Assembly (NCBI GenBank): GCA_973895155.1
Contig: OZ316895.1
Location: 1,909,659 to 1,973,658 of the forward strand
Source: Marsupella aquatica
Lineage: Eukaryota; Plantae; Marchantiophyta
Reading direction: 5' to 3'
Length of the DNA: 64,000 bases
Made by a program: the position numbers and the translations under genes. The notes beneath the pieces are model-generated. The model worked only from the letters and a program-made list of their open reading frames with translations. It was not told where the DNA came from and did not search any database. The first letter of the stretch is position 1; each line of letters opens with the position of its first letter. This document shows positions 19,650 to 53,417 of the stretch, one piece after another.

Positions 19650-21155
19650 AGATCACGTACCATAGTACGCTAGCACTATAGGCACGAATTGTCTTGCAAG
19701 TGATTAAGGATTCTGATGACCTGGCCACTCTGAGACATCCTTTGATGTATAAAAACGAAGGGCGAGAGATCGACTCAACGTCTGATTCTGTACCCAAATG
19801 ACTCGTATCCAGTTTTATCGATTCCCAATCACACTGATTATACTTTTGAGATGTGTCACCAAACCAGTGCAGCAGCGAATTAGGAGCGAGCAATTGAGTC
19901 TTGGACTGAGCATAGATCCCAGCAGATGGATCTGCTTGCCTTCAATTTGATCATGATGCAAGAGAACACATCGACGACGAATTATGGTGACAGATCGTAC
20001 TGTCTGTGCACCTGAATTGCTATGCATGCTTTCCTCGATCACTCTCCGGAGTAACAGCTACATAAGTATGTGCGAAGAATAGAAAATGAACCACAGTATA
20101 TACAGGAGCTCCTGTTCTAAGAATCAGTACACTAGAATGATGTTGCATGGGAAGTACGAAGATATAATTATACCAACATCCTCCAGGCCGACACGAGAAA
20201 TGCGGCGCAACTCACGAACGGATGAGAGTTCAAGGTCGGCAACAATAATATATCAGGTCCGACAAAAGGCATCTTATATATATGTCGACCGTCAAGTCAT
20301 ATGATAAGAGTACTTGTGTTGCCCAGCAGGTGGGTGTCCAATAGGAGTAAGCAAAGCACTCGGATGTCTACGTTCCTGATTGTCGTGATTGAACCTCGGT
20401 TAACTGGCCAACATTATTCTCAGACAAAAGATTATTAGCATATATGCCACCAAAATAGCTGGATATGCGGAGAGTACAATGATGTGCGACAACCTACCGT
20501 AACACACCAGGAAGGAAACTAAGGAGACTTTCCTGCCTAGAAAAGGTCGATCGGATCGAACTTTCGACCTGGTTTGAATTTGATGTTGATTTATTTAATA
20601 TCTACACCTGAATGAATCGAACGATCTTAGGCAGCTGGTTGATTTTGGGGTCTTCCGGCCCACAGAATCCAGTTTTCGTCAATGCTTCCCACCCTTGTGA
20701 CTAGCTGCTGACTCTCATGCTCGACGTTCCTTTGCATTTGATCCAATCCATCGATCAGCCTAGCGGCCCGCTTAGAGGAGATCTCTTGCTAACTGCAGTA
20801 TTCAGTCGAAGATTTATTAGATTTTTGGTTACCCGAGCGTAGGCTAAACTGGCTGTTTTAGAGGTAATTCACTTTGACTTTCACGATAGGGTTGTCGATG
20901 ACTCTATCTAAGAGATGTCAAATGCATTCAGATTTATTGTTCATTGAGTCTCCATCGAGATAGCTAGTGATTGTACCCTCCTTCGGACCAATTGATCAAA
21001 CTTTACAGTATCTGTCATGAATTGTTAGCTAGCTGTGAATTCAACGAAGTGAGTCAATTCTTTGCCAGTGTTAGTAGACGTCTGGCAACCTCGATCTGGG
21101 GAGGATTCACAGAACTTCCAGATAGCCACGAACAGTGAGCCTTGTAGTGGTCCAG

Positions 21156-22490
21156 ATGGGCCAATGCTTGTCTTTTGTACGTCCAGGATGGAGGAAGGTA
21201 CAATCCGCGAGCATGCAGAAGGGTTCCACAGATGTTAAGTCGACCTCAGCTAGATCACGTAATGCTATCGGACTCTACTCTCTACGGGCAAAGCGACGAC
21301 AATCTCTTAGTCAGCGTTTGAGTAACGCTACGGACGAATATGCAGCGGAAGCTGCGAGTGGTTTTTTCAGTGTGTCGGATGTTTCTAAAGCTTCCGGAAG
21401 TCCTGCCGCTGGGGCACCAAAAGGTAAAGAGCACCAAACGTTTGGAAGGCTCATCGCCCAGGAAGCTATAATCGAGGCTATGTGGAAGACTACCGAGCGC
21501 CTAGTTTCTCCAGGAAAGCCATCACCTAGGCCATCACCTAGGCCATCACCTAGCCCTATCTTTTCATCGAAGGCTTCTGGAGATGGCCCTAGAAAGAATT
21601 CCCCAGCACACCAAAAATCGGGAGAGATTACGCCTGTAGCCCCCGACTCAGTTGCTAGCGGATTGAACATCAAAGGCAGACGTTCGTTAGAGAGACTAAG
21701 ACAGCTCCCACCAGACGACCCACGGAGTCTTCAAAAGAGCAGGTCCAGCAAGGACCGGAGGGAATCGAACCAATCTTCCTCCGGTCCCGTCGACTTCGAT
21801 TTCCTCGTACAGAAAGCATCCAGCGACAACTCCAAACAACCTTCTCAAGCTCGTAGAGATGTTGAATGTCCAGCGCCCAGTTCAGAGCCTACCCAGCAGG
21901 TGAACGGTTCTGAAAGTGTACGCCCCAGTTCGCTAAGTGCCAAGGACTTGAATGACTTTTCAAAGTCTTATAGGGAGTCAGCGGCCAAGGCAGCAGCGCG
22001 AGACCGAGATGCCTTCAAGTATATAAGCTCCAGCGAGAATGATCTCTCCATAACAAGCTCAGTGGGGGCGTCTCCTGCTGCGAGGCCCAGGAGAAGGCGC
22101 CAGAGCAGGAGTGCAAGTAGTTATAGTGGTCCTGATGAAGAATTGAGAGAAAGTCCTTCCGAAATGGTGGTGAAACATAGTGGTGCCGACCGCAAACAGA
22201 AAGCCATCAGTTCCCCGTTACCCAGGCCTGTTGGACTCATCAGACACAAATCTTCTCCGTCAATTCCCCGAGGTACGCCTCCAGTCGAGGCCAAGCCTGT
22301 TGGCCTCACAAGAATCAGGTCTTCTCCGAGCTCACTGCATCGAGCTGGTTTAACAGCAGCTGATGCGCAAGCGCAGGCAAGGCAGAAGTTTGGTGAGGCC
22401 TCGTTAGTAGCCAGAGCAGGAAAGCCGAGCAGTTTAACTCAGAGTTCAACTCAAATCAGAAGGGTAGAACGTGCTATTCCTGATCGATGA
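21156..22490 (+). CDS. Uncharacterised Ser/Pro/Arg-rich, probably disordered protein with an N-terminal MGQC acylation-like motif
   Basis: Uninterrupted 451-codon ORF; first ATG at 21156 (MGQCLSF). Contains an SPRPSPRPSP repeat and duplicated PVGLxRxxSSPS motifs. Family not recognised. Confidence 0.7.
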   Translation: MGQCLSFVRPGWRKVQSASMQKGSTDVKSTSARSRNAIGLYSLRAKRRQSLSQRLSNATDEYAAEAASGFFSVSDVSKASGSPAAGAPKGKEHQTFGRLIAQEAIIEAMWKTTERLVSPGKPSPRPSPRPSPSPIFSSKASGDGPRKNSPAHQKSGEITPVAPDSVASGLNIKGRRSLERLRQLPPDDPRSLQKSRSSKDRRESNQSSSGPVDFDFLVQKASSDNSKQPSQARRDVECPAPSSEPTQQVNGSESVRPSSLSAKDLNDFSKSYRESAAKAAARDRDAFKYISSSENDLSITSSVGASPAARPRRRRQSRSASSYSGPDEELRESPSEMVVKHSGADRKQKAISSPLPRPVGLIRHKSSPSIPRGTPPVEAKPVGLTRIRSSPSSLHRAGLTAADAQAQARQKFGEASLVARAGKPSSLTQSSTQIRRVERAIPDR

Positions 22491-25400: not shown

Positions 25401-26861
25401 TAATTATTCATGTGGGTCAATTGACAACAAGTTTTCCTAAGTAATGGTATGACGTCTTGCAGGTTCAAGGTTGTCAAGTTGCCAAGTTACTGAGGAGATT
25501 GGTTTGATATAGTAAGTGATGGTTTGATATAGTAAGTGAAACCGGCTGCAAACAGTTAGGTGACTGTTTTTGTAGGTAGTATTTCAGTCAAAAGTGTAAA
25601 CAATGTTATCTGAGTCAACTGAATGTTCTGAGCAACTCCATCCAAGCTTTTCCATTCCATTTGGGCTTCATAGACACACGGAGTTCCATCGGGGCTTTAG
25701 TTGCCTTTGGTCTCAGTGATTCTTTGTGTGCGATTAATTTGGGTGGACAGCTAATTGTGAGAGACAGTGTAGTTGAATAAATGATAACTCCTTGAATGGT
25801 TGATTGAACACATTGCTTTGAAGCACCTTCCAAAGTGTTGCAATCAATAGGTTTCCAGCTAATTGCACCCCGACTCCGTTTTCTTTCCATGGAAATCCAA
25901 ATTCTAGACATAAATGGTATAGACCCGTTTGCCCTTCCCCCGTCTTGGTCCACCAAAAAAATGGTTGGTGGGCAAAAATTACCCAGTCACTTACCTAAAA
26001 AGCAATCAGGCTAAAGATATTCAGGCTGAAATTTACAAAATTCTGTTTCATCTGCACCACCTACTGGACTATGGGGGAGTGTTTGCTAGGAAATACTTTA
26101 CAATAGTCAAATAGTGTTCTATAATTGAAAGTAAATACTCCATATCCCAGACCTGTGCTTTTTCCTGACCATCTGGAATATGAGATAAGGAGTATTTTCC
26201 CTTTGGAATATTTTCCTGACTGTCAGATCTATTAGATATTTACTCTTAAGCCTAGGGTTATGATTGTAACCATAGTTAGGGATACAATTAGTCTAATAAT
26301 CCATATCCCAGATATTGATATTCTCCCTTATGAAAATACTCCATAAAATGTGGAATGTGCACTCAAATTTTGACAATTGTTTGAATTTGGGGTTGTGAGT
26401 GGTGGCCCTATGGTGATCCGTCAGTAAAATAGTTCATTTTTCCGTGATCGGCAATGGGCCCAAACTACAAGCATGCAACTTGAATCGGCCATAACTTTTG
26501 GCCCCTAGGTCCGTTGGCCGAGAAATATGCGGCCCCATAATCGGGCTCATGTGGGGCCTCTCGGGCCCCTATGGTGATCCGTCGGAAAAATATCTCATTT
26601 TTCCTTGATCGGCAACGGGCCTAATAGAGTTAAATTGGAGCGCGCTTTTCTCAAGCCTTGTCCTTGCTCTTACTAGCCTCCTCTTTGTTAGTCGCTTCCC
26701 TAATGGCCATGATGGTAGCAAGACTAAGAGGGGCTAAACGTTGGAGTTAGGCAACGCCGGAGCAATGATGAGTAGGTGAAAGTTGTATTCGCGACTTTGT
26801 GTTTGAGTTGGACATTGTGTTTGAGTTTTGACCCTAAACTACTCTAGATTGAGTACAAAAC

Positions 26862-26879
26862 CCCTGGGCCCTCACTCTT
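26862..26879 (+). repeat. Left TIR of the giant transposon
   Basis: ccctgggccctcactctt directly after the TSD tacaaaac. Confidence 0.85.
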
Positions 26880-27170
26880 CTTATTAATTTTTCTCCTATA
26901 GAGATTATCCTTGTTTTTTATAAAAACCAAAAATTTTCTCTTATTAAAGTATCTTCAGTGTATTACAAAAGGGAGTTTTGGGCAATAATAATTATCCTTC
27001 ATATATTACAATTTCACTCCACACACCCGGTCCATCCCCCATCGCCCCCAATCCTCCCTTCAAAACTTTTCTGGCTTAGCATAGCTGCCAGTATTAACAT
27101 TTTAATCTATGAAGGAGATATGGATACTGTAAGGATAATACACGTGTACCAATTATAATTTGACACGTAT

Positions 27171-27192
27171 ATCACTATATTCATTAAAACTG
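27171..27192 (+). repeat. Subterminal inverted repeat, left copy (partner at 44272-44293)
   Basis: atcactatattcattaaaactg is the exact reverse complement of cagttttaatgaatatagtgat. Confidence 0.9.
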
Positions 27193-27629
27193 TACTTTTA
27201 AAAGTCCATAAGATGAACCCTAAAGTTTTTTTTTTTCAGGCCAAATTTCTATTAAAGCATTCCCAAAAGCTAATTTTTTTCAGCCCAAATATACACTTTT
27301 GAACGCCCAAAATTTTGTTTTTTTTCACCCAAATGTTTAATAATAACTTAAATCATATATTCTAATTAATTTAAAAATTAGAGTAAATTTAATTTAGTCC
27401 AAAAATCAGAGGCCAATACCACTCAGACCATCTATAAATTAAAAAATATAGATGGTCATAAATCAAGGGTCAAAATGAGATTGACCCACTATATAATTAT
27501 TAAATTATCCAATCCAGTGAGAGAGCCTCACACTAAGCATATCCTAATTATTTACTTTATCCTACATGTTCAAAACATATCCTTTGACATAATATGAATG
27601 TACAATTCAGGGTAGGCACTAGAGCAACC

Positions 27630-28691
27630 CTATCTCCTAATGATCAAGACAAAACTTGTTTGAACAAGAAAGTCTGCTTCCTGATTTATCATAGCGGATA
27701 TCACGGTTGCAAGTATCTCTCGCATGGTGGTTCTTAAACTTATTGGTTTGGTGAGATCCCTAGTTCTGAGAACTTTCCAAATAAAATGTCTTCTATTTTG
27801 TCTATGAGGACCAGAATAGTTGTCTCCAAGTATTACGTTTGCAGTTTCTTCGATCTCATCCGTGGTCCACGTCTCCAGTGGTGGGTAATGCTGCACCTCG
27901 TTCTTTCCGTCCCAAGGAATCTCTTCAGGAGTCACATCCAAGATGGTGCCAAACTCCTTATGGATACAACGACAATCTCCCCACTTCTGTTCCAAAAGAG
28001 CATAGATGGCAGCATGATCCTCCTTGCTTGTTAATAAATTGAAAACAGACCACTTTGGATTGTTGACAGTGATATAATGTAGAACGCAGTAAGCCTTTCT
28101 CAATTTGCAAAGATACGGCCATAATATCTCGGGCAAAAAAGTGTCATTTGAAGCTGTGTGAGTAAATGGATTTGGAAACAATCCATTCACGTCATAATTC
28201 AAAAATGCCTTCAATGGAGAATCATCAATAAGAATTGTATTAGAAGCATCATATTTTTCTGGAAAACGGTCCCAAATGGTTTGCAAATTCTTCAGAAGTA
28301 AATTGGCCTTCCCATCTGTTATATCTGGCCTTTGGATGCAACTATCAAAGGTATCTTCTTGAGTAAAGACAAACTTGAACTTCTGTCGCTCCTCCTCAGT
28401 GAAAATCAACTCCATTAAGTCCATTGTTTTTGGCCTCCTTGCACAGGTCCAAATTGCGACGTCAAAAACCATGAAAGCTGCATATAGAAATTCGTGGAGG
28501 TATGGGCGCTCCACATACATGAAATTAAACCCTCCACGTCTCCCCCAGTGCACACCACGTAAACTTGTCTGATTTCGCCATGATCCTGAGCTTCTGGTCT
28601 TAATGCAATCCCAACAAATCTTGTTAAGGTCAAGAACCAAGAGCTTTCGCCGGATCGGAGAGTGTAGTATTGGAGTAAATTTTGGAAACAT
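27630..28691 (-). CDS. FCP1/SCP (NIF, HAD-superfamily) phosphatase-like domain; probably the last exon of the cargo gene
   Basis: KLLVLDLNK (DxD motif variant), ERPYLHEFL, FDVAIWTCA, LLKNLQTIW, NTILIDDSPLKAFLN. A phase-compatible intron (about 28736-28873) links it to upstream ORFs, but with two in-frame TAA stops. Confidence 0.8.
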   Translation of the reverse strand: MFPKFTPILHSPIRRKLLVLDLNKICWDCIKTRSSGSWRNQTSLRGVHWGRRGGFNFMYVERPYLHEFLYAAFMVFDVAIWTCARRPKTMDLMELIFTEEERQKFKFVFTQEDTFDSCIQRPDITDGKANLLLKNLQTIWDRFPEKYDASNTILIDDSPLKAFLNYDVNGLFPNPFTHTASNDTFLPEILWPYLCKLRKAYCVLHYITVNNPKWSVFNLLTSKEDHAAIYALLEQKWGDCRCIHKEFGTILDVTPEEIPWDGKNEVQHYPPLETWTTDEIEETANVILGDNYSGPHRQNRRHFIWKVLRTRDLTKPISLRTTMREILATVISAMINQEADFLVQTSFVLIIRR

Positions 28692-29879
28692 TAAAATAAG
28701 CCCTTAGTCAATGGGACTCAAAGTTTAAACAATTACTACGGAGGAAAACTCTCAAAATTTGAAATCAAACAAACTTTGTTAAAGCATTTGAAGTAGAGAG
28801 GAACGACCTCGGGGCGACCCTCCTAGAAAAACATTAATTACATTCACTTGCCATTTTTTAGATCCAAAGTATACCTGGGTCAAACCCTTCCTCAACAGCA
28901 ACGCTTTCCGAGGGAATGCCAACAAAATCCTTTGAGGAAGGAGATTCTACGACGGAACTTTGGTCTGTAAAAAAGTATATTATTACAAAGATAAAGCTTA
29001 GATTGTCATTAAAATACCAAGAACCAAAGAAAGGGCTAATAATTTCCAATGCTAAAATGCCCAAATTCATCTATTGTTTGATCACCTAGAACACTCTGTA
29101 TCTCGGAATTGATACCACTGGGAAGTTGCTCTTCAAAGGATGGGGGTGCAAAAACTGGGCTCAGTCTCAAGTTCAGTTTTTTGTAATCTGATTTTGCCAT
29201 TATCTTTGGAGCATCGTCTAGTGATTCTATCATTCCAACCTTTGGTCCATTTCTCCATATAAAATGAGTTGCAGGACGGACTGTTTTCATATATCCAGTC
29301 CTGCCGATCTCGGATCCAGAATTTTGTGAAAATGATAATACTACGGGGCTTCCTGTAGAAGCACTTGTAAAAACCAATTTAGTCTCTGATGAGCAATATA
29401 GAGGAGACAGGGGAGGATTTGAAGCACCAGCCTTCTCTTCTTCATTTGCAGCGGTCTCAGGTACTTAACGATCATCCTCCTTTGCAAGCGCAATGTCTGA
29501 CATTTCTCCCAATTATGCTGCATCAATATTGCCTAGACCATCTGTGCTTGCCTTCCAATGTGCATCCGATGTGGACGATGTAAGATCTAGGTCCGACTGG
29601 TGCATCCAATTCTCTACACCGGCAAAGGGATTTCTTGGTGGGTCGCCCTCAGGTCAACCCACAACATCGGCCAACCCCACACCAAAGTAGGGAATACCTA
29701 CCACTTGTGTTCCACGTTCATCCAAATTTTGGGTGACCCTGTCGTCTGTGTCGTGACCCAATTCTCCTTCCTCAATATCATCTTCGCCCTGGTCTACGCC
29801 TTCTTTGGCGCCAACATGCTCGGAAACCCCATCGCGGGCTCTACCAAATTTGGAACCGCCCATCCGGTCACTCATTATG

Positions 29880-30763
29880 GAAGGAAATTTCTCGCAGAGA
29901 ACCCTTCCATATGCCTGAGTGAAATCATATTCATCCTCAATGTCTCAATACGCAAAGCATTCTCTGAAACACAACAATGGCACCTTCATAACCTGTCCTC
30001 CCGAGAAATAGTCAAGTATAGTCTCCCCTTCAGCCAAAAAAAATTCAATAATACTCTGCAGCATACATTTTGGCTTAGCGTGAATATTCACAAAGCCACC
30101 TCTACTTCCCACCATCTCAAACATGGGAGCCTTTTGTAAGAAATCTCCAATGTGAAATGCCAAAGTTGACTCAGTCTCTGTCTCCTTACTTGTCTTACTC
30201 TTATTCTTATCTCGCTTCTCCGTCTTGTCTTCCACTTGGAAATCAGGGTCGATCGCCGAATTGTAAGAAAATTAGCAATTAAATCCAGGCCTGAACACTT
30301 GCTTCCAATCAAATTTCTCCTCAGTGGTGATTCCTGCAAAGATTATCTCCTCCATACCACAACTGAAAAGTAAGCCCTCTGGAACTGGTGTATCACTCCG
30401 TCGATAGCTCCCGTAGTCAACGTGGATGTCCATTCCCTTTTCATGTTGCAATTTCCTAAGGGCACTCAAAATGTTTGCAGCAAGTGGCCCCGGATGCACA
30501 GTCATGACAACAACAATTGTTGGATTTCTTGGAAGATCCACAATGTATTGCAGTAATGCAATAATTTCAGCATCGGTCCAAACATGTTGTCGGAGCCTAC
30601 TGAAGTCAACAATGGCAAGAGGACACAAAGGCGAAGGCTCTTGTAGCATTTCCGGCACGGTCGTCTTCATCAAATTATCACTAAAAAATGTCAAGAAAGG
30701 CTCCGTGCGAGAACGACCAATCCCACCAAATTCTTTACAATACAACCCATCTAGTCTGACCAT
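29880..30763 (-). pseudogene. Beta-class N4/N6 DNA methyltransferase-like domain, degenerate and split over ORFs 30272-30763 and 29945-30235
   Basis: HAKPKCMLQSIIEFFLAEGETILDYFSGG...FRECFAY resembles the KP..L...I....Gd.VLDpFxGSG...R...E C-terminal block of N6_N4_Mtase. Upstream CPLAIVDFSR sits where motif IV (DLIxxDPPY) is expected, giving the beta-class order. Confidence 0.55.
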
Positions 30764-30769
30764 CAGACT

Positions 30770-31360
30770 TTATGGGAAACTCTCCTTGACCACATTCTTC
30801 TTCAATGAATTGTTGAGGTAAACCTCACCCGCTGCTCTCCTCAATTTTGTCATCTCAAGCTCAGATTTCAAGGAAGGCAACAATATCACCAGAGACTCCC
30901 AAGATGTGCCAACATGAAACTTCTCACGATACTTTTCCACGAAATAGCCAATAATGACTGTTCTCAATTTGGACATTATCTTGATTGTAAGGGCCAAGTC
31001 TCCCATTGCGACAAGCTCTGATTTGTTGGTGATATCCTTCTTCAGCAAGACACGCTCCTCTTCAACGTCCTTCAAGATCTCAATTATCTGTTTGCTACTA
31101 ATCTCTCCTTCAAAGCATCGAAAGGTACCGGGAGTGATCAATTTTGGGGGTCTTGGCCCTCCATACCCACCAGCCCCGTCTTGGAGCTTCCCACTCAACC
31201 ATTTTGCACACATGTTCCGCCATAATTCAAAGAGCTCATCTTCGGCAAAAAGTAACCAATAAATGCTCTTTAGGCTTGACTTCCCCATTGTAACCTTTGC
31301 CAGGGCAAGCCAATCCTGCATATCCAATGGACTTGACATTAGTTTCAGGGTACAATGCAT
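30770..31360 (-). pseudogene. Helical linker exon of the cargo gene between the ParB-like and MTase-like parts
   Basis: 196-aa ORF, co-linear and in frame with 30272-30763 across a single stop. No family recognised. Confidence 0.45.
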
Positions 31361-31649
31361 ATGTTAGAAAATTTATACCTATGTTTGAAACAGGCTAAGC
31401 CGCCTCGCCCCAAGGGCGTGGCGAACCTCTACATCTAACCGCAATTGACTGAAACGGAACTAGGGAATTATTCGTAGAGAGACTAGTCTAGGTTGCCTCG
31501 CCCTCAAGGCAAGGCAAACATTTGCTTTAATCTTCTAACCAAGGAAAACAAGAAAAGGTAACCTCGCCCTTGGGGCGAGGCAAACCTCTACCACTGACAA
31601 TCTTTAAACAAAGTGGATCAAGAATAGTTTGCATTGCTCCAACATGTAC

Positions 31650-32609
31650 CTGATAGTTTTTTCTATCTGTATTCTGATTAGTCCCAATCCCTGGACGCGG
31701 CAGTTTCCCGCACTCCTCAAACTGCCTTCGTGCATGAACAATAGTCTCTAAAAAACAAGACTTAAATTGCATAGTATCATTGACAGCATTCGATAAACTT
31801 GAATGCTCAACCAAAATTTCTTCGGAGTGAGGTCAGATAGGATCCTTGCTTTCCTATACTTTAGTTTGTTGGCAAGATCTATTAGCTTGGCGTCAGTCTC
31901 GGCCCACCCTTGGATCCATTGGGCAGCTCTTGTAGAATGCTGGCCACTGATGGCAAGGAATTGGATCTCATGCTTCTTCACACCAATCAAAAACTCTTTC
32001 CTATCTTTGAGGTGTGTTGTCATAATGAAGCAACTGTTTAGTGCTCTCGCGATACAGAATCAAATCAGCAACTTGTGGTTCCTGTCCAGGGTTTTTCATC
32101 ATAGACTTTGATATCTCCATTGCATGCGAACAATTGAACATTCGATATACAAAAATAGCCGATGGCGGATTAATACTTTTTATAGGAATATCAAAAACTT
32201 TGCGGATGCCAAAAGTATAATACTGCTCAATATTACGCAAAACCTCTTGGCCTTTGAGCACATCATCTTCTTTGGGTCCTTCTGTCGGACACATATCATC
32301 CTCTGGATGCAAGACAAAGTTTGAAGTCGACGCCGATATTGGTTTTGATTTCGCAACCTTTGCCTTCTTTGTCTGTTTTTTTGGGGGGCCCTCATCATCT
32401 TCATTTTTTTTAGCAATCTTCTTACGGCATGAACTCCCAGATTGTTTCTCTTGTTGAACAACTAGCTCTCGAAGCTTTTGTTTCTTCTCTGTCTTTGATT
32501 GCGCACTTCTTTCCACTGTCTTCTTTCTCTCCTTTGCCTTATGCTTTGCTTCTTTTTCTTCATCTCTGAAATCCACGTCCGGCACGCGGCCTCTTGAAAC
32601 TGTGGACAA
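31650..32609 (-). pseudogene. ParB/Sulfiredoxin-like domain preceded by a Lys-rich NLS-like segment; frameshifted
   Basis: FDIPIKSINPP...YR...HAMEISKSMMKNPG.EPQV, then after a frameshift FLAISGQHSTRAA (compare the ParB/Srx iidGxHRxxA motif), ARIL, and LVEHSSLSN. Confidence 0.6.
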
Positions 32610-34080
32610 AAAATGAAACTCTTGTCGATTGGTTGCTCGTATGAAAAATGTGTCTTCTCAATCATCCTTTGAACTATCCAAGTAGACGGAGGGTCCACAC
32701 TGTCCGCATTGTCATGCATGTGCTTCTTTACGTAGAGAAATCCAAACAATAGGTCAACTCCACTTATTTGAGAACGCGTCTTCTCAAACATCTGATCAAT
32801 TGTTACTCAATCTGGGAAGAATCCCATATCAGCTACGCTTATCTCCAATCGAGCCATCCACTCAACATTTAGTAAAGTCGAGTAGAGTTTTATTGGCACC
32901 AGAAGTCTCATCCACTGAGATTTCTTATTGGACTCAACAATAATCATTGCATTGCGGTTGTTGTCTGTGTTCACAAGGACGACTGGACCTAGAGTAACAA
33001 TTGTCTTGCGGTCATTCAATTGACTTGTGAGGCCCTTGAAACAAATCAAGAGACTACCTTCCGCCGACACCCCAACTTCTAGTGCCCATCTAAATCCTAG
33101 AGTATCTTGGTCAGGGAAAACAAAGTCCTTGATATCCTTGTCCATAATATTTAACTCCGGCTTCTCAAGATTTTTTCCTGGTAAGAAACATTGAAAACAA
33201 ATGGTCAGCATCATATTTTTAACATTGACATGTGGAAAACTTTCAAGGTGCCTTGCCCTTGGGGCGAGGCGACAAATAGAAGATTGCAAAATCTTCTTTG
33301 CTCCTAGTGCAATTAGCCCTGCCACCTCATCCAAGCAATCAAACATTATTTAGGAATGCAGACGACATCGCCTCGCCCCAAGGGCGAGGCAACTTCTGGG
33401 AAAGCAAACAACATTTAGGAATGCAGAGGACGAAAGTAGACAACATTTAGGAATGTAGAGGACATCACCTCGCCCCAAGGGAGAGGCAACTTCTGGGAAA
33501 GCAGACAACATTTAGGAATGTAGAGGACATCGCCTCGCCCCAAGGGCGAGGCAACTTCTGGGAATGTAGACAACATTTAGGAATGCAGATAACATCACCT
33601 CGCCCCAAGGGCGAGGCAACTTTTGGAAATGCAGACTATATTTTAGGAATGCAGACGACATCGCCTCGCCCCAAGAGCGAGGCAAAAAATAGAATATAGC
33701 TAAAGATCCTTTATTAATGTAAGATACAAGGTCCAATACGCCTTCGGAGCAACAAGAAATCTAGAATGAAGTAGACGTCGCCTCGACCTTGGGGCGAGGC
33801 GACTGCAAAGGAATATAGAAATTTTCCTAATAAGAAGTTTGAAATCCAAATTAAAGTAAAGTTGCCTCGCCCTTAGGGCGAGGCAAGAAGTTGAAGCAGG
33901 TGGTGCCTTACGTGGAAAAGTTAACTGGGCTTTCTTTGACGCCTCCAATGCATTGTTAACCAATTTTTGGACATCCGGGTCTTCAGGGTCATATTCGTAT
34001 AGAGAGTTATAATTGAAGTTCAATGACTCTTGAGAACTGGCGGAGGTGGTGGAAGCTTCAGAACTGGAGGAAGTAGACAT
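32462..34080 (-). pseudogene. 5' exons of the cargo gene (unknown domains)
   Basis: Co-directional ORF pieces (33700-34236 with internal MSTSSSSEAS, 32807-33346, 32462-32791), separated by repeat-filled probable introns. TATA-like tatagg on the minus strand at about 34386-34391. Confidence 0.4.
33346..33690. repeat. ~65-bp tandem array carrying the hairpin GCCTCGCCC-CAA-GGGCGAGGC
   Basis: Five hairpin copies at about 33370, 33467, 33532, 33597 and 33663 within the unit catttaggaatg(c/t)aga.gacatcgcctcgccccaagggcgaggcaacttctgggaaagcagacaa. Dispersed copies lie at about 31402, 31495, 31562, 33250, 33780 and 33864. Confidence 0.9.
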
Positions 34081-35269
34081 TGTAAGGGGCGAGTGAGATT
34101 TAAGATGATACGTGGCAGCAATGGAGAATGCCACAGGCTGCAAGAGGGCACTAACAGGCAAACAATGATCGAGGGAGCGACCCAAAAGGGAAGGGAGCAA
34201 GGCGAAAATAAAAGCCTTAGAGCGAGGCGGAAACAAAATCCCAAGAGCGAGGCAAAAACAAAAGCCCTAGAGCGAGGCAAGAGGGAGGCAAGGAGTGAGG
34301 AGATGAGAGAGGAGCCTGAAGAGGAGGAAAGAGAAGAGGCAAGAGGGAGGCAAGGAAATGAGGCCTCAAGCGCAAGGCCTGCCTTCCTATACCCCCTGCG
34401 AGCGAGGAGTCCAAGGAGGCAAGGATCCGAGAGGGTACGGAGGCATCAATGCGCGCCAATGATGGAGACCCTCCTCACTGCATGTGATCGTGAGTCACCG
34501 ATGGTGTGACCACTCACGACCACTCGCGACTCACCTACCAATTTTAAACTTCCGAGCTGTCAGCGGTGTGTGCTCGCAACTCACCTATCACTCGTGAGTG
34601 ATTGGCTGACACCCTATCCGATGTCTACTTGTGTGCTGGGTGCGTGCCTCATCCACCCGTGCCCGATCTGTTGGTGTCCACTCGTGTGTTGGGTAATGTG
34701 TGGGCTTTTTGCCTCTCAAACTGAGTATAGACCTCCTGCAATCCATTTTTTGGTTCATTGTCATTTAGACAGTGATTGGTACGATCACTGACTCTCCTCT
34801 GTCCGAGTGCCTTGTTTAGGTCCGCATGGTTGAATGCAAGGTTTAGTAAGGGCACTGGTGAACACTGTGGTGCTAAGAGTTACAATGCTGGCATCCAAGG
34901 TACCCATTTAGCTTGTACAAGGGTGGGCAGAGATATATTGCGGAGCAGGTTAGTGATTTTATTTATTTATCTTAGAAGTACTAGCTCAACTACATCTAAT
35001 TCAATACCTTTAAGCCAAACCTAGATTAAGATTTACACATTAGGTTCTAGATCATATATTTTACTCATTTCTAGACCTTTATCCACAGTCTAGCATGTGT
35101 AAAACTTACTGTACCCCTTTATGTGATTACTAACATAGTTTCTAGAAGTGAGTCGGAATTATTTCGTGCCGACCTGACTATGTCATCTTAACTAGCATTT
35201 TAAACTGGTATATAAAAGCATAAGCAAGATAGTTTCACAAATAGTTTTGACATAATTTCAACTTAATAG

Positions 35270-35590
35270 TTGGAGTAGGGTTGAAATAATTCCGACCCAA
35301 CTTGTCAATGTTTAGTCAATTAAATCATTTTAAGACATATTGTTGGAGGAGGGTCGAAATAATTCCGACCCGACTTATAAATGTTTAGTCAATTCAATCA
35401 TTTTAAGACATATTGTTGGAGGAGGGTCGAAATAATTCCGACCCAACTTGTAAATGTTTAGTCAATTCAATCATTTTAAGACATATTGTTGGAGGAGGGT
35501 CGAAATAATTCCGACCCGACTTGTAAATGTTTAGTCAATTAAATCATTTTAATGTTGGAGGAGGGTCGAAATAATTCCGACCCGACTTGA
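35270..35590. repeat. 73-bp tandem array (about 4.5 units) with the palindrome GGGTCGAAATAATTCCGACCC
   Basis: Palindrome starts at about 35278, 35351, 35424, 35497 and 35563. The intervening sequences are near-identical. Confidence 0.9.
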
Positions 35591-35715
35591 ATGTATTTAG
35601 GGTTTTGAGTGATTTTACAATATTTTTTGGAGGAGAGTCCAGATTTTGAAACATGGTTGTAACATGGGGAACTTAACAATTTCTAACTTTATTTGAATAT
35701 AGATAGTCCGCTATC

Positions 35716-36880
35716 ATGATCAATTTTACACGAGGGGATGAAGTGTCATTGGTGATCGATGGATTTGAAACGGGAATTGGGATAGTTCAAAAGGTTGACC
35801 CCCAAGATACTATACAGAACATTTGTCTAGGGGATAATCGAATTGAGGTATTGATCAAAAAGTGTTTTGATGGATCGCGTCAACTTCCATTTCCTTCGCC
35901 CAAATTTTCTACATTGGCTGAGGCAATTGACTCCTGCGTGATTTGGGATTGTGCATTGGCATACTTTAGGTCATCAACTCAGCGCCGAAGAATCAATGTC
36001 GATGATTTCTCTTTGGCTGGAGATGCTGGAAATGATAAATCCAAAATTGATGCAAGGGTTGAAGAGGACGTGTTCAAGGAAGGAGATGAAGTTCAGATGT
36101 TCATTTTTGATCAGTTGGTTGCAAATGGAGTCGTTTTCAAGACAAATCCGATGGATATTTGTCATACTGAAACACTCGGGGTTGGTCGCATCAGTATAAG
36201 AATATCTGATATTGTTAAGGGAAATCAAAAATTGCCATACTCGCACCCTGGAGGTGATACAATAGAAGAGGCCTTGCATACCTGGGTTATCTGGGATGTT
36301 GCGCATGTTTCTAGAAAGGGCACTCTACGAGATTTTGGCGTGTTTGGTAGTTCAAATATTTTCAATGATCTTCCATTAAAAGATTTTACACTACGTTCCA
36401 ACTGGATGGCGGAGGAGGTTGATTTGTATGACGCTTCTCGTTGTCGGAAGGTTGCAACAGGTGTTATCACGGTCCCATTTGAAACAGGTGCCGTTGACGA
36501 ACTAACTTCTTGGTGCAGATCATGTTGGTGTTGTTGTTGTGAATATCAATGAACCCGGATTATTTCCAAATATCCGTGTTGGTACCCCTGGCTTGGTGAG
36601 GTGGGAAATCAAATCCCTTCTATTGATTTCGTCTCAAAGGTTTCTTGGGGATATCCTTGAGGAAGTTTCAGAGAAGTGGATGGAGTCGGGTCGAACTAAG
36701 GGCGATCCGGATTCGGATGGTGATGGTAAACCTACAAAAAGACCATACAATTTCATTAGGAGGACAAAAGTTGATCTTGAGGAGAAGAAGAAAAGGCATT
36801 TGGAGTCGAGGGCACTTTTGAAAATTAACGAGGAGTCCATTGATTCCATCCAAAGAGAAGGTTGTTGCAAGCTGAAGTGA
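35716..36880 (+). pseudogene. Three tandem Tnp1/En-Spm-like (CACTA TnpA-type) domains followed by a transposase N-terminal Cys motif; probable 5' half of transposase B
   Basis: Repeated pattern GDEV.....(VA.)G.V.K.dP.D......LG..RI.(V/I).I.....G...LP(F/Y)P.P...T(L/I).EA.....VIWD, with the third copy frameshifted. The ORF ends SIQREGCCKLK*, parallel to EIHKYSCCDNYC in transposase A. Confidence 0.6.
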
Positions 36881-37654
36881 ACACGATTTCGGACCGAACG
36901 AGAACTATTTCCTCTAAACGAGAAGTTTATTTTCATTTTCCGCCGAATCTCACGAAATCGGCAGTTTTTTTCATCAAAAACACGTTTTTGGGGAAATAAT
37001 GTAATTCGTATTGGAGTTCGGATTGAAACAGCAAATTTAATAATGATCAAAACCAATGAAATTCATGCTAACAAACATTCGTATTATCAAGGAACAATTA
37101 GATCCGAAAAAATTTCTCCTCAACCTCATATTCACGCTCTCCGAAGATATCTGAAAGGTCTTATCTATAAATCCATATCCACATTTCGAGCCAAGTGCGA
37201 TAACTGTATCAGACTCCGGATTTGAGCCATGAAAGCTCCGACCCAATCTCAGTTTTCTCAGTTTTTGGATATTTACCAAAAATATTTTACATCACAGTCG
37301 ATAAGAATTACTACACGGTTCGTCAAATTTACCTTGCAGTTACCTCCGCAATTGACCCTCCGCAAGTGACCATAGTCAACATGCCATTCTTTCAATAGCA
37401 ATGCGCAGTCCGATAAAATTATCGCGAAAACTACGGGCAAAAAAAATACTAGTCGACAATACTAAGATCCTTCGGTTCATCGGTTAAATTTCAAAATTCC
37501 TATCCATATGAAGAGAACTCTTCGCAATACCAACATCAGATAAATTTATCGCTTCAATTTCAAAACTATATAATTTACCACGATGCATGTGTGAGAATGA
37601 AATTGGAAATCCAAGAAATATACCCTTTTCTGCTATTTTGTCGTTTAGGGTGAC

Positions 37655-37705
37655 AGCCAATCAAAAGTGGACACGTGGGCCAACCCCTCAACAGACACTA
37701 TAAAA
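37655..37705 (+). promoter_or_regulatory. Candidate Pol II promoter of transposase A (CCAAT, G-box CACGTG, TATAAAA)
   Basis: ccaat at about 37658, cacgtg at 37672-37677 and tataaaa at 37699-37705, about 150 bp upstream of the ATG at 37850. Confidence 0.45.
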
Positions 37706-37849
37706 GGGCCACCATCGATAAGTTTTTGGCGTCATTATCGAGAGTAGAGTTTTGGGAGTTGTGTTTTTGGAGCAACATTCTGTCCGTTGAGCCTTTCGTT
37801 TTCCCTGATTGCGGGAGGAATGCAAAGCCCCATAGTGTCTCGGATAGCC

Positions 37850-40800
37850 ATGTCTCAATCAGACACAGATTCACCTTCCAGTTTAGTTGAATCCTCTCCT
37901 AATCTTGTCGCTCGCTGTTTGCCAAGTCACATACTTAAAGCTCTACCTCTCTCACAGCAAATAGTGCCCGAAATCTCTGACTCAGATTCTGATGCAAGTT
38001 CTGGTCCTGAGCCCAGTGCTTACTATGTGTCGCCTAGTAAACCTGAGAAGCGTCGTCTCTTGAGCGTTCCATCGCCAAGAAATGAGAAACTTTCAATCCC
38101 AGGTTTAGGTCCGAGACGTCGCTTCAGGCCATCCATCCCGGGTTATGGAGAGGGTATCGGATGACCGATACGCGTATCGCAGTCGGCATTCAAGTCGCCA
38201 CATTCAACACAAGTTCAACGACGGATCTTTCAGTCTTTGGGTGAGGATCGGGACACATAAATACAAAGACCGATACGGCGATCGGTCTTTGCATTGCCTG
38301 GACTTGATGTGCGAGCAAGCGAGAGAATCGGACTGCAAAGTCCAGACTCGGCCCTTTCTCGAATGGTCCGTGGGAATCGTGGTGAACAAGTACTCAATTT
38401 TCCAGCAGCTCGCGAAGTCGTTGGGACTGCACGTGCGAATCCAGAATCTCCAAGTTCTCAAGGGCGGACTGTCATTGGTTCCAGGCTCCAAGTATCGAGG
38501 AGAGGTCTTAGTGGCGTTCGGGTTATGTATAGAGAGCCACGGAGTCCAATTGTGTTTTCAAATGAGTTGAGTGCATCAGAGGACGAAGATGAGGAAGGAG
38601 ATAGAGAATCCGATATAATAGCACAAGTTGTGTCTGAATGTTTAGGAAGAGCTGTCGAAGAGAATAGTTATAGTCGTCTATTCAGTGCCCCTCTAAATGC
38701 GTCAAGGAGATCTATAGCGGATGGTAGCTCAGCAGAGAGTGATGCATCTATTCGCGAGGCATCTGAAGGACCCGAAAATGCCAATGTTATGAACGGATTT
38801 CAGGCTGTAGAGAAGTCAAATGAACCTAGTAAAAAAGATAGGGACCGAATTACTAGGAAAGACAATGTGATAAATGACAAATTGAATAGAAACAAAATGA
38901 GAGAAATTCATAAGTATTCGTGTTGTGATAATTACTGTCTGAGGAATTTGGGTCTGCTAGCTGTGACGAAACAACGCACTTAATACTATGGGCTATCCTA
39001 CCCAGAGAAGAACGTCCTTCTAAGAGGATGTGTGAAGGGTGGGCATGCTGGTGCAAGTGGTTACTCAGTTAGCGGTAGATCCTTTTGTCGGAGTGGTTTT
39101 AAGAAATTATTTTTACTAGGAAATAATCGTCTCCAAAAAATCTCGCAGAACATGTTTTCTCGGATACAGATCGGTACAGTTTATCGAGAAAAATCACCCG
39201 CACATCTTGGTCTCGTCCAATGGCTGGATGATTTTTTTTCCACAAATGTCGAGAGTCTCCCCAACAAGGATATCTTTCATTTACCTGACAATTGGACAAA
39301 AACATAAGTTTTTGATGCCTTCCAGTCCGAAACTCTAATGCGCCAAGAACAAGGCATGACATATTCGTGGTTTGTTTGCATTTGGAACAAGGAGTTTCCT
39401 CGCGTGCGCATCCCCAAAAGGAGTCGTTTCTCTACCTGCGCCCCGTGTACTGAATTCAAAGCACTCCGTGACAAGGCAACACTCGAAGCAGAAAAGAGTA
39501 AGTTTCTAAACCTGTGTGTTACTCCCGATAATTTTATCGGGTTGAGTATTCATGTGCTTCTTCTTTGGCCATGTGAGTGAATATATCGTTTGAACAGTTT
39601 GAATACTGAACCTGATAAATTTATCGCTGTCACAGTTTTTCATTACGGTCTTGTGTTTGAATACTGAACCCAATAAATTTATCATTGTAAGGGTTTATCA
39701 TTACGGTCTCGTGTTTGAATACTGAACCCGATAAATTTATCGCTGTCAGGGTTCAACATTGCGGTTATCATGTTTTGTCCTAAACATTTTTATTATTGTA
39801 GGAAAATTCTAAACATTGCTAAATGAGCATCGGAAGGCACAAGCAGTCGAGAGGGAGAAGTTAGCAAAGCACCGGAGCAAATGTTACAAGAGTCTGGAGA
39901 AATATTTGGGCATCTGTATTGATGGAATGGATCAAAAGAAGACAGAGTTACCTCATTTCATTCGGTGTCCGAAGAATATGGATGAAAAGTATTTCATCCC
40001 CGTACACATAGTGGGTTGTTTGATCTTCAACAAACAATTAAGTTCAAATGTTTTTTTGAACTATCCAAATATTCACAATGATAGCAACCTGACCATCCAC
40101 GTTATCCAGCATATTCTGAATACCTGGGAAGGTCTGCTCCCTTCAGTGCTTTACCTCCAGCTTGATAACACAGCTCGGGAAAACAAGAATAAATATCTTA
40201 TGGCATATTTGAATATGTTGGTGGAGATAGGTGTTTTCCAGAAAATGAAGGTTGGTTTTCTATTGGTGGGGCACACCCATGATCAAATTGATCAAATGTT
40301 TAGCAAGTTTTCTTCAAAATTGAACAAGCGAAAAGCTTTCCGGTTGGACACTCTTTCAGCAATCATAGAGGAATCCTACAATCCTATGGCAAAGATATTT
40401 TTCGTCGACGAGGTTGCCGATTTCAAGAAATTTGTGTCAGACAAGGATCAAGCAAATGACAAGGATATGGATGGTTAGGTTCTACGTACTCTCCATGGCA
40501 TAAGTGCTCAAAAACAATTTTGGATTACTAGAGTACTCAAAGATGGAAGTGCTCGGTCCGTATTCCATGCCAAACATCTTTCAACGACAACCGATTGGGG
40601 GGAGACGGTGGATTTTGTTCGGTACATTCCATCATCTGGAATGTGGGTCGCACCACAAATGGCATTGAAGTCGGCCACGGGAGCGACAGGAGACAATGAA
40701 GAGCAAGAGAATGATGTTGAGGAACAAGATGAGCGGGCGGCTCAAAGTTATTTGTCAACTCTTCAAAAATATCGAAGAGCAATTGAAGATGGATTCAATT

Positions 40801-41405
40801 ACTTTGACGACGAAGATCGTCTATGGTGGGGTCGTTTTTTTTACAAACAAAAAGAAGTGATTCAGCACCACCTAAAACCTGCACAATGGAGTTTTGATTG
40901 GAGTTGGCCTAAGGTAAACGTACAGAGAGAACTTCCGAGTAATCCTACGGAAGCAGCAATGGAACCTAGCTTGGTTGATAAAGTAGCGGGTGTGAGGACA
41001 GTCATGTATTCCGGAAGTCGAAGAAAAGTCACAGAAATTGGAGACTTCAAGGATCTAGAGGTGAATACTAAATTTGCAATGATATGTGTAGCAGCCCATC
41101 AGGATCCCAAGGGAAGACCATTCTGGATGGCAAAAGTGACTGAGATTCTCACAAGAATTAACGACATCTCGGAGCGGATTAAAATCACTTGGTATGCAAT
41201 GGATTCGGAGGAAGAGTCTGCAATTGAAGGCAGATATTATCCGGAGAAAGAGGCTTCGTCTAGCAAAGTACTGGAGGATGAATTGTCCCTAGCAGAAACT
41301 GTCGTTTATGCGTATAACTTTGCATTATTGGCAAATAGTACTCTCCCTATACAAACAAGATGAATCATTCAAAATGCAATGGAGACTGTAGTCGTTGATA
41401 GTTGA
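37850..41405 (+). pseudogene. Transposase A, DUF7869/Sola-like DDD type, with a spliceosomal intron at 39498-39801 and several stops and frameshifts
   Basis: CCDNYC; FCRSGF; HLPD; STCAPCTEFK; ICIDGMDQKK; LYLQLDNTARENKN; GFLLVGHTHDQIDQMFS; C-terminal PFWMAKV...ITWY domain. The GT-AG intron joins the ORFs in frame. Confidence 0.85.
39520..39770. repeat. ~59-bp intronic repeats with the 14-bp palindrome CGATAAATTTATCG
   Basis: tttgaatactgaacc.gataaatttatc occurs three times. Variants lie at about 37410, 37540, 39526 and 41560. Confidence 0.85.
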
Positions 41406-41593
41406 AGCTAGTTGCAGGTTTAAGTTATAATGGTTATCGTTCCCATGAATATGTACAGTGGTTATCGTTCTGGGACTATGTACTCCGCAGCTATAATGAT
41501 ATCTTTTTTTTTTAAATAATTGCAATGACAAACCAGTTAGAGCATACAATGCTAAGTCCGATAAGATTATCGACAACTCCATTCCCCCCCAAG

Positions 41594-43752
41594 ATGGAAT
41601 TAGATGGGTTTGCTAAGGTTACTGAAGTTACTATGTACACCATTTGGAAAAACTCATTTGATAATTTTGACTTTCACAAGGGAAGTGCATTTGCCAAGTG
41701 CACATTTTGCACTGAGTTCAAAGATCAATTGATGCGGGAGAAGAGAAAAAAAGAGCGTGCAGAGATTGAAGAGAAAAGAGCGTGACATCTTTGTGAACAA
41801 ATGTCAAGAAGATATGTTTACTATGCTCATAGGGTTCTTGCAAAGAAGGATCCTCAAAACTATCTTTGCATTATTCACGATAAGATGGATCAAGCCAAGA
41901 CTTGGATCCCCAGGTTGGTCCCCACTCCAAAATCCCTCTCTGGTAGTGGTCAGCCTTTGCCTATTGCTCTTACTGGGATGTTAACCCATGGAAGAGATCC
42001 TGGAGTGTATGCACATTTCAGTTTGACTGGACTTTGGCCTGGAGATGCAGACTTTACCGTGACATCTTTGGCCAAATGCCTCCGAGATTTGGAAGATTAC
42101 ACAGGAGACAAAACTGGAGACCTTCTTGAGGGATTGAATTGGAATGCAACTAGGCCAATATTTCAGTCCCTTCTAGACTTTGAAGCATTTCTGGCCGGTT
42201 ACTTGGAACCCAAAAATGTTTCAATTGTTCAATTTCAAGGCATTGAAGATGGTCAGGAGACTAAAAAGTTAAGCACAGTGGATGTTGGTTCTAAGGATGA
42301 TCCTGAGACTACTAGGGGCTCTTTCAAGCCCTTACCAAGGCACCTAACGTTGCAGATGGACAATTCAGGGAAAGATAACAAAAATCAATATGTGATGGCA
42401 TTTTGCACTGAGCTTGTTAGCAGGGGGTGTTTGAAACTGTGCAAATGTCATTCCTCATGGTTGGCCACACCCATGAAGACGTGGATGCATTATTTTCTCA
42501 AGTATCCAAACAGGTCAGATACAAAAAGGTTGCTACCCTCTTGGGGTTGATGGCTGAGATTTGGGAGTGTGAAAGCATTCATCCTGTACCATGATTGATT
42601 CAAGAGGTTGCATCTTACAAGGAGTATTTGAAAACTTTCCAGGTGAAAGAGATAGAAGGTCACTCAAAACCAGTGGCATTTCTTTTCTCCATGAGGGATA
42701 ATGTGCCAATGTATCAATATAAAGCACATGTCAAGCAACCTTGGCTTCTGGCAATGGGGAGGTCCATTTGGAGAACTAATCCCATCACAAATGCGCTCAT
42801 TTTACCGGAAGGCCAACCATTTGCAAAACCTATATCTGGGGATGTACAAAAGAAGGCTGGAGAAATCATCCCATTCCTTAATCGCTATATTGATTTCTTG
42901 AAGAAAAGTTGTAAGGATGAGACCTCTACAGCATATAAAGAGAGATTTCCTCTGGTCAAATATTGGGAGAATCTTGTGCAAGCACCGTCCGAGGAACTTA
43001 CAATAGAAGGGGAGGGGGAAAGACAATTGCCATTGACAACTGATTTTTGGCCAAAGGCTAACCATGGCACAGGTTACAAGATGATTTTGGGGACATCTCA
43101 GCCGTCAAGTGAACCTTCTCAAAATCCAGAGATGATGGACCTTCAAAATGAGTACATGGAAGAGATGGAAGATCAAGCTGCACCCTTTGTTGGTGCACGA
43201 CAAGAGCGAGAACCCGCACGTTGGATTCCTCTACAAGATATTCAAGAAGGTCACTTTGTATTTTTACGTCCAGAGGATGAATGGGAACAGGAAAATGGCA
43301 AAGGGCGTTTCTGGTTGGTTCGAGCTTTGGGTGGTGTGGATCCAAACCGTGAGGTTCCCTCAACAGATTTGCAACATATTGAAGGGTCTTCTTCAACGTC
43401 TGTTGAAAGCATTCCTCTTAGGAATGCTCCTATGTTCCAAGTACAATGGTGGAGGCCTAAACATGGTAAGCATGATGCAAAGGATGATGTTCAATATGAA
43501 CGTTGCTTTCAAACCACTAAGACTTGGGAGCTGGATCCTGGGTTTGACAATGTTACTCAAAGTTGGCAGTTTGCAAATTCTGCAATGTATGGGTTTAAGT
43601 CAGGTGCTAAAGAACAAAATATTATGGATAGAGGTTTGAAAATTCCTAAGAATGTTTTGAAAACTCTCAAAATTTACATGGAAGGTATAATTGATGAGCA
43701 GATTGATAGAACTCGTAGGTTACAAGTCTCCACTCAAATGACTTGTGATTAA
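41594..43752 (+). pseudogene. Transposase B catalytic and C-terminal part, DUF7869/Sola-like, disrupted
   Basis: FAKCTFCTEFK; IIHDKMDQAK; LTLQMDNSGKDNKNQYV; frameshifted FLMVGHTHEDVDALFS; C-terminal RFWLVRA...VQWWRP domain. Confidence 0.85.
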
Positions 43753-44504
43753 GAGGGTCGAGTTGATTTCCATGCGTTTGTCTAAAGTGAGAGAACAAGA
43801 CAATCAAATTAATACTCTATGATCTCTCAAAGTTATTGAATGGACTTTCTTATAATTATTATTTTATTTGTCTTAGTATATTTTAATTCTAGAAAATGAT
43901 GTCATTTCATTCCTTCTAGTAGGTTGGATATCATCCTAGTTAACTTTGTCTAGACAGTATAGTCATTCCATTGTATTGGTGCTTAGTTAGATATCTTACT
44001 CAAGCTAAATGTTTTGAATATAGATGCTATCCAAGCTTATATGTTATTACTAGATTCTATCTATTTTCCAACCAAATGAACACTTTTATCACCCAAATGT
44101 TTTCTAATATCATCCAATTTAATATTTTACTTTCCCAAAATTTCATTTTTTTGTCCCCAAATTTACATTTAATGATGCTTGAATTTTCATTTTTCATCTT
44201 CCAAATTTACAATTTTCATGCCTAAAACTATGTTTTTAAATCGCCAAATTTCCCTATATCCTTTATAATTTCAGTTTTAATGAATATAGTGATGTATACC
44301 AATAATATGATGCCGCATGTTGCTACCTATTGATTTACCCTTCCGCAAAAGTAAGAAGGATGTCATTTCAAGGGATCTTGCAAAATTACAAAGTGGTTTC
44401 GGTATATATACGGAGGTTGCGGAATTGTAAGCGAATTATAAAAATTACCGCCGAAGGGATAAAAATGACCCTTGAACGGTTCTCACATCCTCCCCGTATC
44501 AGAA

Positions 44505-52700: not shown

Positions 52701-53417
52701 CCCGGCGGACTGTCTACTTCTTGGTCCCTGCCCCCAAGTGGGCTGAGCTTTCATGGTGCTCCTGGGCCGCAATGTGTCGAGTGACAGCCGAGGTACGTTA
52801 ATCTAGTCCACGATGTTTCAGCTGGGCTCGAAATGTGAAGGTCTCTTCTCTTCCTTAGTAGTACGCGCGCCCTTCGAGCAGAACATTGCTACATTTTGAC
52901 ACACAGATTACTTTAGTTTTTATACACTCCTTGCATGATTTTGCCACATTGCCTGCGCTCTCAACAATTAAAATCTTGCGGAGTTTCACCGCTTGAATGC
53001 AACGTTCAATTGTCACCGTCGATTCTGCAAGTCTGAAACTTTGTTAACCTGTTTTTTTGTAATCCAGGAAACTTGCGTCCTCGCTTGCATCTCGTGGAGC
53101 CTTCTTCAGAATGCTTAATTCTCAGTGAAATAGGATCTCGGTGAGGCTGTTCTGTGCTTCACGAGTCGATTCAGATATATAAGTAACTATATATCCTCAG
53201 CAATTCAGCGGGGTCAAACCGCTCATTCCAGCTCAACATCGTCAGCGAAACAGTGACTGTGGATGTGGTCGCTTGTTTACAACCCATTCTAGGTGCTCAG
53301 GACCTTACTGAAGTTGGAGGGTTAGGCCCTAACAATTCGACTCCAGGAGAAAGTGAACGCACACACGAGAAATTTGGAGTATTTTGCCTCCCATTTCATT
53401 TGGGATTGCATTTGGAG

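Follow-up and report, generated by a model that had tools for sequence, protein, structure and literature searches.

A probably Sola1-like DNA transposon of the liverwort Marsupella aquatica carries a predicted ParB-like/methyltransferase-fold accessory gene with intronic palindromes

Results

A transposon with back-to-back transposase and cargo genes

A 64,000-nt stretch of the Marsupella aquatica genome (contig OZ316895.1, positions 1,909,659–1,973,658 of the forward strand; hereafter the window) contains a broken copy of a repeated cut-and-paste DNA transposon at 27173–44291, whose minus-strand accessory, or cargo, gene encodes a predicted ParB-like region and a methyltransferase fold and holds 11 palindromes in its introns. 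The original prediction had read 27630–34080 as transposon cargo encoding one ParB/Srx–amino-methyltransferase–FCP1 fusion. Three-frame translation of 27400–34500 recovers all of its motifs (ISGQHSTRA, AIVDFS, K-P, ILDYFSGG and an FCP1/NIF-like frame at 27630–28703) as co-directional minus-strand pieces, interrupted by stops and frameshifts.

The transposon, to which no strand is assigned, measures 17,119 bp here. Its terminal inverted repeats lie at 27173–27202 (plus) and 44262–44291 (minus); the first 20 nt of the two arms are identical, both starting CACTATATTCATTAAAACTG, and pairing of 27168–27202 with 44262–44296 extends the inverted repeat to 35 nt. ATAT (27169–27172) stands just before the left arm and ATGT (44292–44295) follows the right one, giving either a 4-bp target duplication with one mismatch or a 2-bp AT duplication that fits exactly. 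Copies were compared in public contigs from four runs of two studies, including runs X1, X2 and X4. The whole interval is at high contig depth in all four: X1 main contigs over the element have a depth of ~480, compared with 15–19 (X1) and 28–30 (X4) for unique flank, contig depth being distinct from copy number. The host element is clearly much repeated, and the description of the gene as transposon cargo holds. An X4 contig continues into sequence unlike the window after 44293. The element is lodged inside another repeated sequence (26400–27168 and 44297 onward), and one X2 contig joins 27168 to 44297, a near-empty site.

Within the host unit, the cargo gene (minus) and the transposase gene (plus) stand back to back. 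The 5′ part of the transposase region (35707–36879) gives a weak PF03017 match (E 0.027); the broken 3′ part (41589–43752) matches DUF7869 and bears three Asp motifs, HDKMDQ, QMDNSG and GHTHEDVD. The plus-strand interval between them, 36880–41588, is missing from some copies: contigs that join 36879 to 41589 (X4) and to 41663 (X1) show it to be a nested second DUF7869 element, and the host unit is therefore ~12.4 kb. Both DUF7869 transposase regions in the window lie on the plus strand.

Sola1 transposases carry a D-D-D triad. The Asp motifs and the near-AWWT duplication favour assignment of the host element to Sola1, as judged from these motifs and the DUF7869 match. The termini read CACTA..TAGTG, so that an EnSpm-like identity is possible alongside Sola1. 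EnSpm/CACTA elements combine CACTA termini with a 2–3 bp duplication and an EnSpm-type transposase; on the transposase side, the weak PF03017 match was the only one, with no Transposase_21 match among the 29 pieces covered by the Pfam scan of the window. A 4-bp target duplication with AWWT preference is a hallmark of Sola1 (PMC3845634).

Structure of the cargo gene

All parts of the cargo gene lie on the minus strand. Exon 1 (33912–34080; 56 codons, MSTSSSSE...; donor CAC/GTAAGG, phase 1) is predicted from sequence only, and its frame sum fits exons 2 and 3. It is followed by a predicted intron 1 (33178–33911) and by exon 2 (31650–33177), which encodes an N-terminal beta-rich domain, a lysine-rich linker and the ParB-like region (about 32240–31690). 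The window copy of exon 2 has three frameshifts and one TGA; it aligns with the intact homologue P0098, and tblastn identity over the ParB part is 60–80%. Intron 2 (31316–31649; GTACAT...ATGCAG, phase 0) has the same junction as model P0017 from Calypogeia fissa, in which the ParB part is spliced to the helical part.

Exon 3 (31315–29036) aligns with homologues P0003, P0097 and P0012 and has three parts. The first is a helical domain of unassigned fold (30722–31315), conserved in homologues, with pLDDT mostly 86–97 over residues 41–210 of the AlphaFold model. A beta-class amino-methyltransferase fold follows (29948–30721), and the exon closes with an acidic linker and a conserved tail (29036–29947; tail 29440–29051), ending DEFGHFSIGNY-TAG.

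Single-base indels set other copies apart at 32552, 32006 and 31818. Once these are applied, exons 1 and 2 together measure 1,698 nt and join exon 3 in frame, as in P0017, for a predicted product of ~1,325 aa; X1 majority contigs have sense codons at four of the six stops inside exon 3. In homologue P0095, the ParB-like and methyltransferase parts share one uninterrupted ORF, so this half of the proposed fusion stands. P0095 (ENA), an intron-free 1009-aa frame, would be well suited as an assay construct. Two liverworts, C. fissa and Riccia sorocarpa, are the sources of the named cargo relatives.

The ParB-like region

The ParB assignment of the exon 2 region is a prediction from Atlas language-model features, a weak DndB match and the motif pattern. 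ParB/Srx proteins have a G-x-(H/R)-R nucleotide-binding motif, and RepB carries GHRR. ISGQHS (31951–31934) supplies GQHS, with Ser in place of Arg, in the window and in all five homologues covering the site. The ParB-like pieces gave no relevant match in the Pfam scan, and their structure model is poor (mean pLDDT 44.8). The Atlas features score 0.95–0.96 to fungal clusters, mostly DUF3723, and 0.90 to a cluster in which 35% of the members have ParB_N. The DndB match (E 0.052) was found in one of six proteins scanned; DndB has been placed in the ParB superfamily (PMC10853773).

A methyltransferase fold with a replaced catalytic motif

The methyltransferase domain of the window copy gives a weak match to PF01555 (N6_N4_Mtase; E 0.0065, 29948–30268), and its identity is clear across the cargo family and by fold. 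Motifs IV...X-I-II follow in beta-class order and the whole fold is kept, upholding the earlier assignment; in the window, the motifs are DFSR (30607–30596), K-P and ILDYFSGG (30016–29996). Motif IV of amino-methyltransferases is (D/N/S)PP(Y/F/W), and in known enzymes PP[YFW] stacks on and activates the target base. This motif is found in none of the 35 homologues covering the site and nowhere in 93 sequences. DPPY is replaced family-wide by D-F-x-R, with Asp, Phe and Arg conserved, DFSR being placed at the DPPY position from strand order and model range and not from a residue-level alignment. The cargo shares fold and motif order with CcrM, M.MboIIA, M.RsrI, M.PvuII, rotifer N4CMT and Marchantia DN4MT1, but beta-class enzymes carry (D/N/S)PP(Y/F) and the cargo family carries D-F-x-R. 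DN4MT1, which has TSPPY (bioRxiv 10.1101/2021.02.12.428880), also differs in being a sperm-specific host gene pair rather than transposon cargo.

The SAM pocket of these enzymes consists of motif I, FxGxG, and an acidic residue of motif II. In the cargo family, motif I reads D-F-F-S-G-G, one residue shorter than in M.RsrI, and is conserved (F 25/25, G 23/25, G 24/25), as are K-P and the Asp of motif IV; the motif II site is non-acidic in 20 of 20 sequences, with an Asp one residue later in 11 of them. SAM binding and an unusual catalysis are thus possible from the sequence. An enzyme using D-F-x-R as a new catalytic motif to deposit 6mA or 4mC close to the palindromes of the element would account for the intact fold, for the conserved motif I, K-P and motif IV residues, and for the predicted methylation by an algal counterpart discussed below. 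We consider it unlikely, given the uniform loss of PP[YFW] and the shifted or missing acid of motif II; dead methyltransferases on transposons also have a precedent in DIRS1. The fold is likely catalytically dead, a DNA binder and not a methyl writer, and the earlier proposal of 4mC/6mA marking by known chemistry is unsupported, given the absence of motif IV.

Phosphatase-like exons downstream

Downstream, on the same strand, a predicted 90-nt exon (28875–28964; flanked by phase-1 junctions, with TTTTTACAG at 28965 as acceptor and CAG/GTATAC as donor), again called from the letters alone, precedes a NIF/FCP1-homology exon of HAD fold (27630–28681). The original prediction joined the latter through an intron at about 28736–28873. 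The donor GT (28874–28873) stands; the acceptor moves. An X1 majority contig over 28608–28756 (depth 456, four differences) keeps both TAA codons (28727, 28706) and reads CAG, with AG at 28683–28682, where the window copy has CAA. The productive open-frame intron is therefore 28874–28682 (193 nt, minus), which contains the originally proposed AG (28736) and both TAA codons and still splices in frame.

The NIF exon matches PF03031 (E 4.8e-17, 62.5 bits, cut-off 21.8; 27633–28700), so the FCP1-like label holds as to NIF/HAD and gives way as to FCP1/SCP. Subfamily scores rank HAD-IIID (TIGR02245, E 2.6e-14) above dullard-like (4.3e-7) and FCP1_euk (0.0064); the best PDB match is UBLCP1 (E 2.3e-9), and identity to P0101, of the plant FCP1-homology LDVNGL family, is 30%. 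By sequence, the cargo NIF shares its fold with UBLCP1/HAD-IIID and the LDVNGL family; it differs from UBLCP1/HAD-IIID in lacking a ubiquitin-like domain, in its motif I and in scoring below NCBIfam cut-offs. CTD phosphatases carry DxDx(T/V). Motif I is DLNKI here, without the second Asp and the Thr, and X1 majority contigs list no change there; activity as a CTD phosphatase, and with it the proposed dephosphorylation of the Pol II CTD, is therefore unsupported. The C-terminal DD pair (ILIDDS) is kept. Other copies lack 5 nt at 27743, altering the NIF tail; the minus-strand frame that these copies would enter beyond the difference (27637–27741) reads ...DTCNRDIRYDKSGSRLSCSNKFCLDH-stop and may give the NIF product a zinc-binding tail of Cys/His type.

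Against one continuous protein, a TAG at 29038–29036 closes exon 3 after the DEFGHF tail. No change is listed there in X1 contig 28868–29104, whose one difference was not itemised, and the stop thus appears kept. Eleven stored proteins from eight families have DEFGHF close to their ends. Most are frames called on genomic contigs, where intron read-through could have set the ends, but the named model P0097 stops at this tail as well. A single polypeptide would be reached in frame from a possible alternative phase-1 donor (TAG/GTGATC, 29085) through exon 28964–28875 to acceptor 28682, with 29086 joined to 28964 and 28875 to 28681, but this path removes the conserved tail. Two observations argue for it: Val follows the tail Phe in four of eight families, as a GT donor would give, and in Riccia model P0085 the methyltransferase runs into RKLLILDVEGL, a NIF-like start (11-residue match, E 0.13). 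Nine NIF relatives of 624–2000 aa, among 528 candidates, have PF03031 only, which is weak evidence against a fusion. A protein joining the NIF exons to the methyltransferase is a possible isoform, not an established one. The full original model, a single ParB–methyltransferase–FCP1 chain that would mark its element and act as a phosphatase on the Pol II CTD, draws on the splice path, P0085 and the DD pair; with the tail, the TAG, DLNKI and the FCP1_euk score all against it, we find it very unlikely, more so than the active enzyme considered above.

Palindromes in the introns

A 21-bp palindrome, GCCTCGCCC-NNN-GGGCGAGGC, is present in 11 copies at ≤2 mismatches, where none is expected by chance. 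All lie in introns, eight in intron 1, partly in 65-bp tandem units, and three in intron 2. Upstream of exon 1, a tandem run of three 25-bp units (34195–34278, minus) has one half-site (GCCTCGCTC) per unit, and a further half-site lies far outside. A 73-bp tandem array (4.5 copies, 35265–35626) between the two divergent genes contains GGTCGAAATAATTCCGACC, itself an imperfect inverted repeat and another candidate binding site. CpG observed/expected is 0.56–0.69 over the cargo gene, 0.64 and 0.69 in the flanks and 0.28 in the host transposase 3′ part; since the cargo gene shows no excess over its flanks, protection from 5mC is not visible.

The protein might instead be a transposition helper that binds internal repeats and bridges or organises the transpososome, or autoregulates its own gene, with no role in anti-silencing. 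Such a role would fit the lack of CpG retention, the placement of the palindromes within the accessory gene itself, the weak TNP1/EnSpm-like match on the transposase side and the palindromes of the nested element; as the latter has no ParB cargo visible in the window, palindromes of this kind may serve the transposase. Nevertheless, the 11 copies keep clear of the termini, at least 4 kb from the left end and more than 10 kb from the right, and related cargo moves between unrelated red-algal transposon classes (bioRxiv 10.1101/2025.02.11.637652), as would befit a transposase-independent role. We rate a helper as improbable, on a par with an active methyltransferase.

The nested palindrome, CGATAA-NN-TTATCG, has six copies against 0.03 expected; the nested element is also richer in CpG than the host transposase 3′ part (0.91 and 0.28, respectively), and its right end appears cut. 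Elsewhere in the window, ORFs 46812–47996 and 53187–54500 are paralogous, intronless, 6.5 kb apart and 80–84% alike over matched stretches, the former with a weak alpha/beta-hydrolase match (BD-FAE, E 0.0064). ORFs 8875–10452 and 21126–22490 have no Pfam match, and 761–1270 (minus) holds a DDE_Tnp_1 transposase fragment (E 1.6e-8) from another element.

Discussion

We tentatively read the gene as accessory to a multi-copy plant DNA transposon of Sola1-like type. Its product would be a self-targeting DNA binder, predicted to recognise its own intronic palindromes, with a dead methyltransferase fold that holds or shields DNA instead of methylating it; we put this somewhat short of an even chance. 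Its factual base is the element's ends and repetition, the beta-class fold, the replacement of DPPY by D-F-x-R, the single ParB-like/methyltransferase frame of a homologue and the 11 intronic palindromes. A dimer would bind the palindrome: the ParB-like region would provide the dimer or clamp module, the sequence would be read by the helical or the methyltransferase domain, and the dead fold would hold or shield the DNA. Much as VANC does, occupancy near the promoter region shared by the two divergent genes might then regulate the element or maintain it in an open state. A second or alternatively spliced product is the most likely destination of the NIF/HAD exons, all junctions, including the exon 1 donor, being phase 1; this product, too, probably lacks catalysis and would not be a CTD phosphatase of Pol II. 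Weighing against this reading are the Atlas and DndB scores of the ParB-like region, the conserved motif I with its displaced acid and possible SAM binding, the unremarkable CpG of the cargo gene, the cargo-less nested palindromes, and the Val and P0085 observations.

Self-recognition of the element by its cargo protein is plausible from the intronic palindromes, and the same idea is in print for algae. An accessory gene of Ectocarpus Sola1-1_Ec32 encodes ParB-like and N4C/N6A methyltransferase domains proposed to bind the element that encodes them and to modify it (PMC12477816). It, too, resides in a giant Sola1-type DNA transposon, opposite the transposase strand, with a 4-bp target duplication; it differs in its brown-algal host, length (1104 aa), predicted activity, termini (AACCG..CGGTT) and 282-bp terminal inverted repeat, and the portions of the description covered contain no phosphatase or palindromes. 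Compared by description, the Marsupella cargo stands apart in its land-plant relatives, replaced DPPY, downstream NIF exons and intronic palindromes. The accessory genes PAG2 and PAG3 of red-algal Plavaka elements likewise carry a PF01555 methylase and a ParB-like domain, and tandem inverted repeats beside the ParB gene, PAG3, are proposed binding sites (bioRxiv 10.1101/2025.02.11.637652); there, ParB and methylase sit on different genes, in fusions with a 2OG oxygenase and a SET domain, and the transposase is of the Plavaka type. At the level of the model, there is a likeness to VANC, the element-encoded anti-silencing protein of Arabidopsis VANDAL elements. It binds a short motif that recurs many times in its own introns and in tandem repeats (PMC5735166), although protein and transposon class differ, the motifs are 8–9 nt and non-palindromic, and function was shown by experiment. 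Retrotransposon DAMs are a different system (bioRxiv 10.64898/2026.05.21.726589), and TET-carrying fungal transposons are a further analogue (PMC12730594).

The Marsupella gene represents a real land-plant variant of the algal ParB–methyltransferase accessory class; it is distinguished by an active site that is non-canonical family-wide, by a linked NIF that is non-canonical too, and by intronic palindromes. A literature search, with most subscription journals and bioRxiv supplements outside its range, returned no description of such cargo from land plants, nor of one that includes NIF. A broader conjecture, doubtful at present, is that seed-free plant transposons practise family-specific self-recognition: a ParB-like clamp would sit at intronic palindromes, the fold, with D-F-x-R as a new active site, would either write a non-5mC mark by an unusual chemistry or read or shield methylated cytosine, and a spliced-on NIF would couple the complex to the transcription machinery. 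If true, anti-silencing would here have arisen independently of VANC, from bacterial parts.

VANC is the only shown case of a plant transposon recognising and unsilencing itself, and for the algal ParB–methyltransferase cargo a self-recognition role is so far a proposal. The Marsupella family offers a candidate binding site, the 21-bp palindrome, and a multi-copy element with apparently intact relatives. It also poses a sharp question: divergent families of liverwort type conserve a methyltransferase fold yet uniformly have another sequence in place of the catalytic motif, and the protein may be a writer, or a reader or shield.

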